DNA of 64,000 bases, taken from positions 6,700,219-6,764,218 of the forward strand of contig JAHRHZ010000105.1 of NCBI GenBank assembly GCA_024137785.1, written 5' to 3'. The notes beneath the pieces are model-generated. The model saw only the letters and a list, made by a program, of their open reading frames with translations, made no database searches and was not told the DNA's origin. This document shows, piece by piece, positions 15,653 through 64,000 of the stretch (its first letter is position 1; the number at the start of each line of letters is the position of its first letter). A program made the translations under genes and the position numbers. This DNA comes from Ginglymostoma cirratum. Lineage: Eukaryota.

Positions 15653-15673
15653 TACAAACATCACACTGTTCAG

Positions 15674-15881
15674 AAATAACACAGTGTGGAGCTGGAGGAG
15701 CACAGCAGGCCAGGCAGCATCAGAGGAGCAAGAAAGTCGACGTTTCGGGTCGGGATTTCTGAAGAAGGGTCCCAACCCGAAACGTCAGCTTTCCTGCTCC
15801 TCTGATGCTGCTTGGCCTGTTGTGATCCTCCAGCTCCACACTGTCTTATCTCTGACTCCAGCATTGGCAGTTCTTACTATC
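15674..15881 (+). mobile_element. Fold-back mini Penelope insertion (family A) with hammerhead core
   Basis: About 80-bp inverted arms. TSD TCACACTGTTCAG at 15661-15673 and 15882-15894. CTGAAGA-A-GGGT..ACCC-GAAA-CGTC at 15759-15786. Confidence 0.85.
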
Positions 15882-16604
15882 TCACACTGTTCAGGAAGCA
15901 CGGTTTAATTTTAGAATTTATATTGGAAAAAAGATCAAACTCCAGAGAGACAGACTACGCTGAGACTGAAAGCGTGTAAGAAAGAAGGAAAAATAAAAGT
16001 TTTTTTAAAATGCTGAACCGGTCTTGGGTTTTAAGAACTTATCGACTGTGGGAGAAAGCATAGAATGTAAAAGCGGAAGAACTCGTTGCTGTAAGGCCAT
16101 AAAAGAGTTTTTTTTTAAATTGAGCATAGATGAGTTCAATTAGACTACTCGAATAGTATAATTCTTGAATGCTTTCCTTCTTAGTTGAAGTCACAATCAA
16201 CCACTATACAAATGTAATCGGCGATGACCTCCGCTCAACGTCCTGGTAAAATAGGCTACATGTACACTGCACTAACAAAACACAAATTGCTTTTCGGAAA
16301 GTAGCTGGGAAATCAGACATCTGGGGTTGAGCAAGGCGTGAGCAAAACTGCTCTGAGTAAAGTTACATCTAACAAGGGACTGCGTAGAAATTTAAAGAAA
16401 AAGTTGGCAATGTTTGCACAGTGACTCATAAAGGATTGACCTTTACCTGTAGCATAAAGTAGATAGCCAGACGGGACGATTTTAGAATGCGAGTCATGCC
16501 AGTGAGTGAGACAGCATACTAAGACCGTTGGGCTTTTACAAATTGATTTGAGAATGGGGCAGTTTGCCACAGAATACCATTGTCCACTTTGTGGTTTGAA
16601 TTGC

Positions 16605-16940
16605 CATTGCAATTGTATAGCGCCTGACGACCATTGAACGCCCCAAAGTACTTCACGCGAAATGAAGCACTTTTCTGAAGAGTTGCTGTTATTCTATCTG
16701 GCGATAGGCAGCAGGCCCTTTGTACACAGCAAACTCCCACATACAACAAGGCGAGAATAGCCGGATAATTTTCTTTTGTGATGTTGAGTGAGGTGAATGT
16801 TGGCTAGGGTGGCACTCTGTTTTTCTCCTACATTGTACCATGAGAGCTTTTAAGTCCAGAGGGTAGGCAGGGGCTTATTTTAAACATTTCTTCTAAAAGG
16901 TGGCACCTCAGACGGCGCAGCACTGCCTCTCTTTTGCACT
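16605..16940 (-). mobile_element. Old Deu-type SINE
   Basis: Minus strand reads GTGCTGCGCCGTCTGAGGTGCCACCTTTT...GGCGCTATACAATTGCAA. Confidence 0.65.
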
Positions 16941-17330
16941 GGGCGGGGTGGGGGGGGGTTTGTACTAAATTTGCGTACAGTCCCTGTTGTGAACCGCGAA
17001 CTCGCTACCATCTGCGAGAAGGCTGCCAAAATTTTGCGCCAGTTGTGCCAAAGAATTTATCTTGGCTGTGTTCCATCCCTGTATTTGCCTTCTAGAGATA
17101 AGCGACCTTGCACGAAGTTGACACAGGAGGCAGCAGGGAAGGGGAAACACATGTTCATTCACGTAGCAAACGTTTTCTCTTTAAATAAACTAGAGCTGCC
17201 AACGTCATTTTGTGAGTGAGGAAAGGCACAAGGCTTATCTTTAGTCAGACCCACCTTCGAAACTCTTGCTCCTTAATAACGTGTCGGATTGCGAGTTCCT
17301 TTTGTGTAAGCAATGGGCAGTAATGCAATA

Positions 17331-17494
17331 TAAAAACCGAAAGAACTGCGGATGCTGTAAATCAGGAACAAAAACAAAGTTGCTCGAAAAGCTCAGTTCT
17401 GAGGAAGGGTCACCAGACCCGAAACGTTAATTCTGTTTTCTCCTTCGCAGATGCTGCCAGACCTGCTGAGCTTTTCCAGCAACTTTATTTTTGT
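17331..17494. mobile_element. Fold-back mini Penelope insertion (family B) with hammerhead core
   Basis: TSD GGCAGTAATGCAATA at 17316-17330 and 17495-17509. CTGAGGA-A-GGGTC-ACCA-GACCC-GAAA-CGTT at 17399-17428. Confidence 0.85.
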
Positions 17495-17659
17495 GGCAGT
17501 AATGCAATAGTACACGATGCTGAACTATAACTTCTTTATGCAATATTACCTTCTTAAAGAGGATGATTTTTCTCTGCCTTGCCTCAATACGTCCTCAACT
17601 TATTGACTGATGTTTTTCGTAGCGTCTAATCATCATCGGGATCAAAGCCATCGAGCAAT

Positions 17660-61017: not shown

Positions 61018-61098
61018 CTATGTTATGATGTTAGACATAAATTCCAAGAAACGCTTTGAGTACTGTTCGGGGTTAACGGTGGAGATCTCGGCACCAGC
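61018..61098 (-). CDS. PIP4K2B: PIP4K2B last coding exon (phosphatidylinositol-5-phosphate 4-kinase type-2 beta); upstream exons lie right of the window
   Basis: [32 protein letters not shown] then TAG. The EFMSNI ending fits beta rather than alpha (DFIGHI). Convergent with PSMB3 as in human. Confidence 0.93.
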
Positions 61099-61819
61099 CT
61101 GCAACACATAAGGAAACAAGGCATTAATCTAAACGATATCTGTGCTCATGAAATTATGAATCCTTAACCAGCAAACAGAAGAAACTGAAAAGTAAAATGG
61201 TTACAGCTTCCTTTTCATGAAACCATAACTAGTTAAGCAGGTTTGATCATTTATTCACCATGTCCCCAAAGATATTGTTCCACAACTGCTTCCCCCCATC
61301 CAACTCGCACCACATTATCTAATGTCCAAGCTGCACCCTGAAAGACAATTGATTCATGCTGTGTACAGTTTGTCATAATCCTTTAGTATTCTTCGAGTGA
61401 GGTTAGACAATGTGTACCAAACATGCTAATCAAATGTGTACAGAATAACAAAATTAGTCTGATCTGAACCACACCTGATACTGCTGTACAAATTTATGCA
61501 ATCCTTCCGCATCTCCTCAGTTACTGAAAACGAGAAAGGTTCTCTTGAAGTTTCTCATCCAAAAATAGGGAGATAAAAATATTCGTTTAGTGGCTGACTC
61601 AGTTGTGCCATTAGCTTTGGTTCATTCTATCAATCTAGATACTGTTAATCTTGAATGTTTATAATAATAGAATCATAGGTGGTTTTCATTACAGAAAGAA
61701 GTCACCTGGCCCATCATGTCTGTGTTGGCTGAAAAGCGAGACGTCCAGCCTAATCCCGCTTAAAAGCATTTCACCTATAGCCCAGGTTGTTTCATTTGAG
61801 ATGCATGCTAGGGATTAAC

Positions 61820-61990
61820 TTGTAAAGGCAGCAAATGGAACACTGTTGTTCATTGGAAAGTGGATGGAATACAAAAGTAGGGAAGTTTTACCGCAACTGT
61901 ACAGGTCCTTGGTGAGACTATACCTGAAGCACTGTGTTCAGTTTTGGTCTCCTTACTCGAGAAAGGAAATAATTGCATTAGAAGTAGTTG
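61820..61990 (+). mobile_element. Decayed CR1 fragment
   Basis: EYKSREV..QLYRSLVR..L.HCVQFWSPY, a CR1 ORF2 motif. Confidence 0.8.
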
Positions 61991-62171
61991 CGAAAATAGA
62001 TCAGACTCCCTCAACAGTCACTTCATAATGTAATGCACTAAATTAGGAACAAATTGCTGATCTGACCTGATATGTGCTGTTAAAATTAGCAATTGTGTAC
62101 TTTTGCTCCTTTTGTGTAAAATAACAGTACATTTGTCAACCCTTTTGTCTAATCAAATAAATAATTTGGCT

Positions 62172-63710
62172 CAGAGATAATAGGAACTGCAGATGCTGGA
62201 GAATCCGAGATAACAAGGTGTGGAGCTGGACGAACACAGCAGGCCAAGCAGCAGAGGAGCAGGAAAGCTTGACGTTCCGGGCCTAGACCCTTCATCAGAA
62301 ATGGGGGACGGGTAGGGGGTTCTGAAATAAATAGGGAGAGAGGGGGAGGCGGAAAGAAGATGGATAGAGGAGAAGACAGGTGGAGAGGAGACAGACAAGT
62401 CAAAGAGGCGGGGATGGAGCCAGTAAAGGTGAGTGTAGGTGGGGAGGTAGGGAGGCGATCGGTCAGTCCAGGGAGGACGGACAGGTCAAGGGGGCTGGAT
62501 GAGGTTAGTAGGTAGGAAATGGGGGTGCGGCTTGAGGTGGGAGGAGGGGATAGGTGAGAGGAAGAACAGGTTAGGGAGGCGGGGACGAGCTGGGCTGGTT
62601 TTGGGATGCAGTTGGGGGAGGGGAGATTTTGAAGCTTATAAAATCTACATTGATACCATTGGACTGCAGGGTTCCCAAGGGGAATATGATTTGCTGTTCC
62701 TGCAGCCTTCGGGTGGCATCATTGTGGCACTGCAGGAGGCCCAGGATGGACATGTCGTCTGAGGAATGGGAGGGGGAGTTGAAATGGTTCGCGACTGGGA
62801 GGTGCAGTTGTTTGTTGCGAACTGAGCGCAGGTGTTCTGCAAAGCGGTCCCCAAGCCTCCGCTTGGTTTCCCTGATGTAGAGGAGGCCACAATGGGTACA
62901 GCAGAAGCAGTATACCACATTAGCAGATGTGCAGGTGAACATCTGCCTAATGTGTAAAGCCTTCTTCGGGCCTGGGATGGGGGTGAGGGAGGAGGTGTGG
63001 GGGCAGGTTCCTGCGGTTGCAGGGAAAGTGCCGGGTGTGGTGGGGCTGGAGGGGTGTGTGGAGTGGACAAGGGAGTCACGGAGTGAGTGGTCCCTCCAGA
63101 AGGCAGATAAGGGTGGGGAGGGAAAAACGTCTTTGGTGGTGGGGTCGCATTGCAGATGGCAGAAGTGTCGGCGGATGTTGCATTGGATCTGGAGGTTGGT
63201 GGGGTGGTACGTGAGGACAAGGGGGATTATGTTTTGGTTGTTATTGCGGGGACGGGGTGTGAGGGATGAGTTGTGGGAAATGCAGGAGACACGGTCGAGG
63301 GCGTTCTCGACCACTGTGGGGGGGAAGTTGCGGTCCTTGAAGAACGAGGACATCTGAGATGTACGGGAGTGGAGTGCCTCATCTTGGGAGCAGATGCGGC
63401 AGAGGCAAAGGAGTAGGGGATGGCATTTTTTGCAGGAAGGTGGGTGGGAAGAGGTGTATTCTAGGTAGTTGTGGGAGTCGGTGGGCTTGAAATGGAAATC
63501 TGTTTCCAGGTGGTTGCCCGAGATGGAGACAGAGAGTTCCAGGAAGGTGAGAGGGGTGTTAGAGATGGTCCAGGTGAGCTTAGGGTTGGGGTGGAAGGTG
63601 TTGGTGAAGTGGATGAACTGTTCGAGCTCCTCGTGGGAGCACGAGGCGGCGCCGATACAGTCATCAATGTAACGGAGGAACCCTGCCCAAGCTCCACACC
63701 TTGTTATCTC
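62172..63710 (-). mobile_element. Penelope-like retroelement, 5'-truncated, in the last PIP4K2B intron
   Basis: Minus strand from 63680 reads FLRYIDDCIGAAS...FKPTDSHNYL (RT). ORF 62571-63353 has CTSANVVYCFCC..CGLLYI.ETKRRL..RF.EH (GIY-YIG). Frameshifted. TSD TAAATAATTTGGCT at 62158-62171 and 63711-63724. Confidence 0.95.
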
Positions 63711-64000
63711 TAAATAATTTGGCTGGCAGTTTCCAACTACAGTAATTTAAATGCTTGTTATTCTGTGGAACTTCAAACATTAGAAGAAAAATATGCATTA
63801 CAAAATCATGATGAAACAAAGACAGGGCTGGGCTGCTCTAACGGGCAGTTACAGAATTATACATATTAAAATTAATTGTTTTTTGTTGTTTTCTCTCCTG
63901 ATAGCATTGATTGTAAGATTCCCCAAATATGGTCATTCCTCATGCACAAACTGAGTATGCATCAACCAATCACTCTCTCCACTCTCAGTGCACCTTGGCT

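Follow-up and report, generated by a model that had tools for sequence, protein, structure and literature searches.

Minimal type I hammerhead motifs in the termini of Neptune-type Penelope-like elements of Ginglymostoma cirratum, and a likely origin of their dispersed copies

Penelope-like elements (PLEs) carry minimal hammerhead motifs in their pseudo-long terminal repeats (pLTRs), and neither this class of ribozyme, whose kind was first described in 2014, nor its large-scale dispersal is new. Here we analyze a 64,000-nucleotide (nt) stretch of the shark Ginglymostoma cirratum (GenBank assembly GCA_024137785.1, contig JAHRHZ010000105.1, positions 6,700,219 to 6,764,218 of the forward strand), hereafter the window, whose motifs are, judged from sequence, minimal type I hammerheads in the pLTRs of Neptune-type PLEs. 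Comparison with related copies across the genome indicates that the dispersed copies are likely to be inert by-products of a copying process that starts within the RNA and runs off its 5′ end. Because class and dispersal are known, the presence of the motifs is in itself ordinary apart from its scale.

Described systems and the identity of the shark motifs

Among the closest described systems is the minimal hammerhead in pLTRs of metazoan PLEs (Cervera and De la Pena 2014, PMC4209133), with which the shark motifs share the type I topology, the lack of a loop 3, a palindromic 15.2-16.2 segment, an extra nucleotide that separates position 9 from 10.1, the G10.1-C11.1 pair and a helix I of 4 bp, as well as an occurrence in thousands of single dispersed copies and in opposite-strand pairs; fish Neptune elements are also named there. 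The shark motifs differ in their stem II, which has 4-5 bp. Since mass dispersal is already in print, with about 4,000 motifs in coelacanth and 9,000 in Xenopus tropicalis, a high density by itself sets the shark apart only in degree, intact copies here being about ten times the highest count in that source, as obtained with different descriptors. The 5′ boundary at helix I, the promoter-like spacing at -31 and the target duplications of solo copies found here go unreported in its available text.

In the Poseidon element of Anolis carolinensis (Frangieh et al. 2024, PMC11167929), as in the shark, the hammerhead lies at the junction of pLTR and open reading frame (ORF), both strands are primed, and two internal reverse transcriptase (RT) starts bound a 30-40-nt tail. 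The corresponding shark positions are +94 and +130, in a numbering that sets the core residue C3 to 0 and places the predicted cut after +27 (family A) or +29 (family B). The anole element belongs to another clade and its ORF starts at stem II, whereas that of the shark starts 166 nt after C3; multi-copy transcripts are proposed for it, and the available text maps no transcription start and describes no run-off copies. The endonuclease-containing (EN+) PLEs of the Neptune and Nematis groups (Craig et al. 2021, PMC8557442; Arkhipova et al. 2013, PMC3846280) share with the shark copies a C-terminal GIY-YIG domain, a CX2-5CxxC linker, partial tandems, head-to-head inversions, a tail on one end and target duplications. 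Rotifer solo copies in these sources lack duplications, unlike those seen here, and rotifer inversions are read as self-priming on an antisense template, whereas the shark pairs mix two start sites. Likewise, pLTR-derived type I hammerhead repeats with dispersed monomers make up the non-LTR retrozymes (bioRxiv 10.64898/2026.07.22.740005), which have been reported from one chondrichthyan genome. They are defined by tandem units, whereas the window holds no tandem array, and the sampled sequence yielded three head-to-tail adjacencies among 273 traces and one natural tandem elsewhere, consisting of two intact family A cores 94 nt apart (G000:C1:1770203-1770324, minus strand, L125-L128 region). 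An expansion of PLEs has been described in whale shark introns (10.1101/443036), and published accounts treat both the function of PLE hammerheads and the way pLTRs arose as open questions (PMC8557442, PMC11167929).

The Penelope origin proposed in an earlier note on the window is supported by RT and GIY-YIG domains in related copies. The young copy L183 matches both RVT_1 (PF00078) and GIY-YIG (PF01541) of Pfam above cut-off, and the ORFs of its young relatives are near-identical, which makes the family usable in the existing in vitro assay. The decayed ORF piece of the window, taken alone, gave no match in a Pfam scan, yet it is 82% identical to L183; a PDB sequence search returned nothing useful. 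A single ORF with RT, plus GIY-YIG at its C terminus, marks the element as an EN+ PLE, and the partial tandems, inverted 5′ pieces and 30-40-nt tail typical of that group were all found. Young family A copies have a CX4CxxC linker between RT and endonuclease, and a CX2-5CxxC-type linker, as given for Neptune and Nematis PLEs (PMC8557442), also occurs upstream of family B and C termini. The termini of family B and of this third family, C, lie downstream of related PLE endonuclease pieces, the family A motif sits both upstream and downstream of the ORF, and the proteins of the three families are 42-63% identical in matched stretches. Open frames of 2,236 and 3,717 amino acids were rejected as N-gap artefacts, as was an ORF start at the ATG inside CUGAUGA, which opens a frame of 15 codons, the first ATG of the long frame lying at +166. 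This 15-codon upstream frame, seen for instance from the AUG inside a family A1 core at L232:2571-2616 (minus strand), is absent from families with CUGAAGA or CUGAGGA. In a single case (L279:1501-1650), a family C-like core is followed directly past the cut site by family A 3′ untranslated sequence.

The anatomy of a minimal type I hammerhead, also claimed in the earlier note, is present in full: the core, the extra nucleotide and a palindromic stem III without a loop. Among 40 descriptor hits, the extra base between 9 and 10.1 occurs in 39 and ACGT in 38; helix I measures 4 bp in all three families, its first base being the A 4 nt before C3. All catalytic residues and an NUH triplet are kept in the three families, at loci chosen by patterns that fix the core. 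Covariation, which had been suggested as a check, takes the form of compensatory changes between the families, with U-A replaced by C-G and U·G by G-C in helix I, and G-C by A-U in stem II. This comparison used 45 hand-picked sequences (listed among the dropped rows), and stem II, unlike helix I, was fixed by the search patterns. The A-U form of stem II has 230 matches (loops of 3-6 nt) and the A·C form five (5-nt loop only).

The very dense reservoir postulated from the window is borne out, as regards copy number, by genome-wide pattern counts. A relaxed intact-core pattern has 96,005 matches, against 0 in the reversed control, while an exact family A 28-mer pattern has 32,012 and one family B pattern 4,843. 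A profile of the terminus downstream of the cut site detected 273 traces in sampled blocks, not strictly random, that total 1.064 Mb and include 952,047 non-N bases, or about one per 3.5-4.4 kb, the lower density being that obtained without the C1 block, which was picked after it had been seen to be dense and contributes 78 of the traces. A rough extrapolation gives about a million termini. Of 134 sampled copies that span the core, 46 keep it and 88 have lost it, 34 of the latter by CpG-type changes alone.

Copy boundaries, promoter-like sequences and head-to-head pairs

Roughly one in three young copies has its start 3-5 nt ahead of the core, while the share starting at the cut site is at most 3%. 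After removal of nine traces flanked by N, starts fall between -8 and +2, with a hot spot at -3 to -5, in 37 of 106 family A and 68 of 158 family B traces of the sample; for family A, 15 starts are spread over the next 286 nt upstream and none lies within 3 nt of the cut. In nested genome-wide counts of a young A subfamily, 78,308 copies reach C3, 70,163 reach -3, 42,069 reach -6 and 38,124 reach -9, a loss of 40% between -3 and -6 against about 10% per flanking step, to which subfamily variation may add. The corresponding counts around the cut are 100,872 from +30, 93,113 from the cut site and 90,314 spanning it, a loss on crossing of only 3%. The 3′ ends of traces cluster near +94 and +130.

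Solo copies that start at this edge have mutually unrelated flanks, and 18 of 64 show a target duplication of at least 10 bp, compared with 0-1 in each of five shuffles (seven of 124 rows were dropped from this analysis, and L023 and L025 are counted twice among the 64). Three of the 30 loci holding the 5′ part of the ORF (L225, L233 and L226) start at -3, end in a second pLTR and have flanking duplications, all three being internally deleted, and six of the 30 are partial tandems. Since unit-length copies begin at -3, the hammerhead leads the unit-length element, and, with the ORF starting 166 nt after C3, it makes up the first 32 nt of such copies. Five loci of 1.3-2.3 kb with both pLTRs (L225, L226, L233, L237 and L244) each lack a different internal part, which suggests frequent template jumps. 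At the 5′ junctions of edge-starting copies we also observed stutters of 4-6-nt units repeated two to three times (window 15745-15754; L042:1531-1545; C105b and C1 blocks); these instances, which are uncounted, look as if the RT had realigned several times on reaching the end of a template.

A spacing of about -31 for the TATA box and an initiator consensus at the start site are familiar features of promoters. In the shark copies, a TATA-like box is found 29 to 33 nt upstream (in most cases 31 nt) of the A that stands 4 nt before C3 and is preceded by C, so that an initiator-like CA occupies -1/+1 of the 5′ hot spot in all three families. The box is present in 21 of 26 long copies, as opposed to 0.8% of random positions, and the upstream sequences of the three families differ from one another despite the common box. 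The exact family A stretch from TATA-like box to stem II occurs in 30,500 copies; in the window the box is kept in the copies at 50958 and 62298, and edge-starting solos lack it. A pair of TATA and initiator-like elements is described in a rotifer pLTR (PMC3846280); a downstream PLE has been described as transcribed from its upstream partner's pLTR (PMC6765202). Logan contigs of sequencing runs that we guess to be RNA contain the terminus in abundance and cover the ORF; loose contig ends at -3/-4 are not independent evidence, because they mirror the genomic boundary. Our literature search found no account of the 5′ boundary, the promoter spacing or a strong-stop reading, and one directed at sharks found no paper stating the boundary or strong-stop idea; for both searches, Repbase/Dfam notes, subscription papers and supplements may hold such an account.

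Head-to-head pairs account for 98 of the 273 traces (49 pairs), against one tail-to-tail and three head-to-tail adjacencies. A long end is joined to a short end in 41 of the 49 (expected 49%, p = 5e-7), an arm reaches the edge in 37, either arm being able to do so, and a target duplication of at least 9 bp surrounds 22. The pairs fit two cDNAs that would have been primed from the two target nicks, at the two start sites, and then linked 3′ to 3′; a tail confined to one end is described for PLEs (PMC8557442). Pure fold-back self-priming was rejected, as by itself it leaves the 41 long-plus-short pairs unexplained. Identical inverted family B arms (window 36666-37213) lie on both sides of a 400-N gap at 36765-37164; assembly gaps often fall at head-to-head junctions, and young pairs are therefore undercounted.

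A proposed copying route and its alternatives

The minus-strand strong-stop synthesis of retroviruses and LTR retrotransposons is primed internally, close to where the RNA begins; it involves run-off and a transfer by way of a terminal redundancy, and it goes with direct terminal repeats. By analogy, we propose that the 3′ end of an upstream PLE copy acts as promoter, so that the RNA would begin with the 4-nt 5′ strand of helix I, and that RT would then begin at +94 or +130 and yield a strong-stop-like cDNA of 95-135 nt from uncut RNA. This cDNA might integrate alone, giving a solo with target duplication; be joined 3′ to 3′ with a second cDNA from the other start site, giving a head-to-head pair; or jump to the RNA's 3′ end, giving long, unit-length and partial-tandem copies. 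In a last and least certain step, assisted by protein and by a partner paired through ACGU, the ribozyme would cleave the downstream pLTR; the terminal redundancy of 32 nt left behind could guide the jump as R does in retroviruses. The PLE route would differ from the retroviral one in having no tRNA primer, integrase or RNase H and in priming on nicked target DNA. Internal RT starts and protein-assisted cleavage have been demonstrated in vitro for the anole element (PMC11167929).

The boundary statistics predict that transcription begins on the A located 4 nt before C3, that run-off yields cDNAs of 95-135 nt and that templates are uncut at their 5′ motif; this prediction is precise and cheap, and it separates a linear strand-transfer route from a circular-RNA route. 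The complete LTR-like version, with a start on the first base of helix I, a downstream cut creating the 32-nt redundancy, and a protein dimer priming two RNAs, possibly held together by ACGU, at +94 and +130 to make strong-stop cDNAs that jump, pair or integrate, is tentative and on balance doubtful. If true, about a million termini would form a fossil record of copying intermediates, and some 30,000 outward-facing TATA promoters would launch ribozyme-headed RNAs into host DNA.

Several points weigh against the internal-start, run-off reading or the hammerhead fold it builds on, beside the uncertainty of the downstream cut. The double hammerhead is not the lowest-energy fold of any of six motifs, in an energy model that ignores tertiary contacts. 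Covariation amounts to three ancestral changes only, and 351 of 500 shuffles reach three pairs; being three ancestral events, these changes show selection in active lineages and not in dispersed copies. The TATA regular expression was written after the sequences had been viewed, and the 26 long copies were picked by eye. The contigs of presumed RNA runs show no transcription start, cap or cleavage end, and as no G excess was seen just upstream of solos, there is no sign of cap copying. In family B, 14 of 158 starts lie within 3 nt of the cut, six of them exactly at it; a number of these resemble products of decay or of folding back through helix I, and a small pool of cleaved template may lie behind them. 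The CAG at -5 to -3 of families B and C could be a splice acceptor; as the cause of the boundary, splicing was rejected, since the nearest AG of family A lies 24 nt upstream and short copies have no common upstream exon. In D. virilis transcription starts further upstream, 46 nt ahead of an intron of 75 nt that ends right next to helix I (PMC2377424, PMC4209133), and the start geometry is therefore not general. The anole endonuclease, finally, prefers ATT (PMC11167929) and could itself set the boundary.

An unlikely alternative is that the fold is kept as a signal for protein binding or RNA dimerisation, with two RNAs joined by ACGU in a protein dimer and little or no cutting in vivo. It agrees with templates uncut at the 5′ motif and with head-to-head pairs in which both start sites are used, a pattern that a complex of two RNAs would give; catalytic mutants had no effect on in vitro insertion (PMC11167929) and Naiad elements spread without the motif (PMC8557442). 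The retention of catalytic residues and NUH triplet in three families speaks against it, with the reservation already made on how those loci were chosen.

Under the circular-RNA model of Cervera and De la Pena (2014), cutting would take place at each of the two hammerheads and the unit would be ligated into a circle, the boundary at -4 reflecting an RT stall or an endonuclease nick at ATT or GTT and not the end of the RNA. Cut-spanning copies and partial tandems are accounted for in this way too, the ATT preference of the anole enzyme is in its favour, and a C-rich upstream tract in family A might stall RT. The model is nevertheless quite unlikely: it leaves unexplained why three families should have a TATA-like box at precisely 31 nt from the stop and why helix I should end on this same base, and families B and C have GTT and GCT, not ATT.

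The earlier note had pictured a dense ribozyme reservoir whose copies might pair in trans. That the dispersed copies form a working reservoir, cutting host or read-through transcripts through ACGU pairing, is very improbable, although the 96,005 core-intact matches, the 30,500 copies with an exact TATA-to-core stretch, which could be transcribed, the abundance of the terminus in presumed RNA contigs and a same-strand neighbour within 500 nt for six of 46 intact cores can be cited for it. Most copies are decayed (88 of 134 without a core), promoter-less as solos, or enclosed in the long hairpins that head-to-head pairs would form, with predicted energies of -157 kcal/mol for the pair at 15759 and -144 kcal/mol for that at 47191. 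The 4-bp palindrome is weak. The double-hammerhead fold was predicted 7-32 kcal/mol above the best two-strand fold in all six copies tested, and in five of the six motifs the best monomer fold is a competing hairpin that pairs the CUGA strand with CGUCA. Published activity is low even for dimers (PMC4209133), one of nine Xenopus dimers was cut (bioRxiv 2026.07.22.740005), and the anole motif was uncut without protein and showed no RNA-seq ends at the site (PMC11167929). The dispersed copies are probably not active.

Recombination between the pLTRs of unit-length insertions, as in solo LTRs, would leave the same 5′ end and duplication, and unit-length copies with direct pLTRs and target duplications do exist, but it is highly improbable because precursors are scarce (1,953 first-look candidates with the 5′ part of the ORF, 3 of 30 being unit-length) and outnumbered by about 23,000 edge-starting copies in one young subfamily, the repeats measure only about 100 bp, head-to-head pairs cannot arise so, and a transcription start at -4 would still stand.

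Copies and other features of the window

All five CTGANGA..GAAACGTH cores reported in the earlier note were recovered at the same positions and strands (15759-15786 +, 17399-17428 +, 37416-37445 +, 47191-47164 - and 50958-50931 -), whereas 200 Markov-resampled windows contained 0.02 on average. Re-inspection bore out the ACGT palindrome of stem III, the cut triplets GUC (family A) and GUU (family B), and both examples of helix I (17395 and 50931). One of the five, at 37416, is not intact, with G·G in place of the first stem II pair, G10.1-C11.1. The short stem I holds at 17395 and 50931 (4 bp) and is shorter still at 15759 (2 bp) and 47191 (1 bp). All five have an extra A between A9 and G10.1, on which the note was silent, and three (15759, 17399 and 47191) each belong to one arm of a pair arranged head to head. 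Broken copies do exist near 17730, 22160 and 62271, on the minus strand, with C3 at 17757, 22187 and 62298, whereas the supposed broken copy at 55511-55557 is itself a head-to-head pair in which neither arm has CUGA because the arms start at +4/+5. The "about 10 traces" become 26 in the terminus profile, and the relaxed intact-core pattern has four matches in the window against an average of 1.4. As for "largely unannotated", a scan with Rfam covariance models found no hammerhead among 23 matches at E<=10, which agrees for that library only. The copies are as follows.

246..335, plus: decayed family B-like terminus, beyond the range given in the earlier note
15670..15749, minus: inverted short arm of the 15670-15883 insertion, starting at +17, without CUGA; pairs with the plus arm in the predicted hairpin of -157 kcal/mol
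15759..15786, plus: family A minimal core with helix I of 2 bp, in the long arm (from -4 to about +128) of the head-to-head pair 15670-15883, which has a 13-bp target duplication
17332..17396, minus: inverted long arm of the 17332-17494 insertion, starting at +66
17399..17428, plus: family B core with 4-bp helix I and 5-bp stem II, in the short arm of the head-to-head pair 17332-17494, which has a 15-bp target duplication
17673..17757, minus: decayed family B-like terminus
18027..18152, plus: decayed family B-like terminus
22060..22193, minus: decayed family B terminus starting near -6
36020..36127, plus: family A terminus starting at +20, without CUGA, overlooked earlier
37413..37511, plus: solo family B terminus starting at -3, with an 11-bp target duplication and the core 37416-37445 (G10.1-C11.1 broken)
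47164..47191, minus: family A core with helix I of 1 bp, in the short arm of the head-to-head pair 47098-47298, which has a 15-bp target duplication
47192..47298, plus: long arm of the 47098-47298 insertion, starting at about +23, without core
50931..50958, minus: best preserved family A core, with 4-bp helix I, within the 5′-truncated copy 50858-51029
50987..50993, minus: TATA-like box, of putative function, 31 nt upstream of the initiator-like A at 50962, the predicted transcription start
55409..55593, no strand assigned: head-to-head pair with arms starting at +5 and +4, both without CUGA; target duplication found
62171..63710, minus: 5′-truncated Neptune-type PLE with a target duplication of about 13 bp; a short piece of terminus, in inverted orientation, lies at the 5′ end (63690-63710)
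62271..62298, minus: family A core in the 3′ pLTR of that element, with GGAA replacing GAAA; TATA-like box at 62327-62333
62595..63719, minus: decayed frame from RT (YIDD) to GIY-YIG, 82% identical to residues 459-843 of L183
5086, 5500, 24655/24716, 26217/26311, 36761/37165 and 38550: further terminus traces

A second dispersed repeat family, which we take to be SINE-like (short interspersed nuclear element), is represented at 13313-13471, 15485-15641, 36137-36403, 50526-50850 and 38966-39035 by copies 71-80% alike, and it directly adjoins a Penelope terminus at 15641 and at 50850. An intact-looking tRNA-Asn (GTT) gene lies at 30324-30397 on the plus strand. The open frame 22406-22747 (plus strand) gave no match in a Pfam scan and presumably resembles the C-terminal end of a CR1-type long interspersed nuclear element protein. 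Two direct repeats of about 150 nt, 83% alike, lie at 27442-27590 and 28881-29030, spaced by 1.44 kb.

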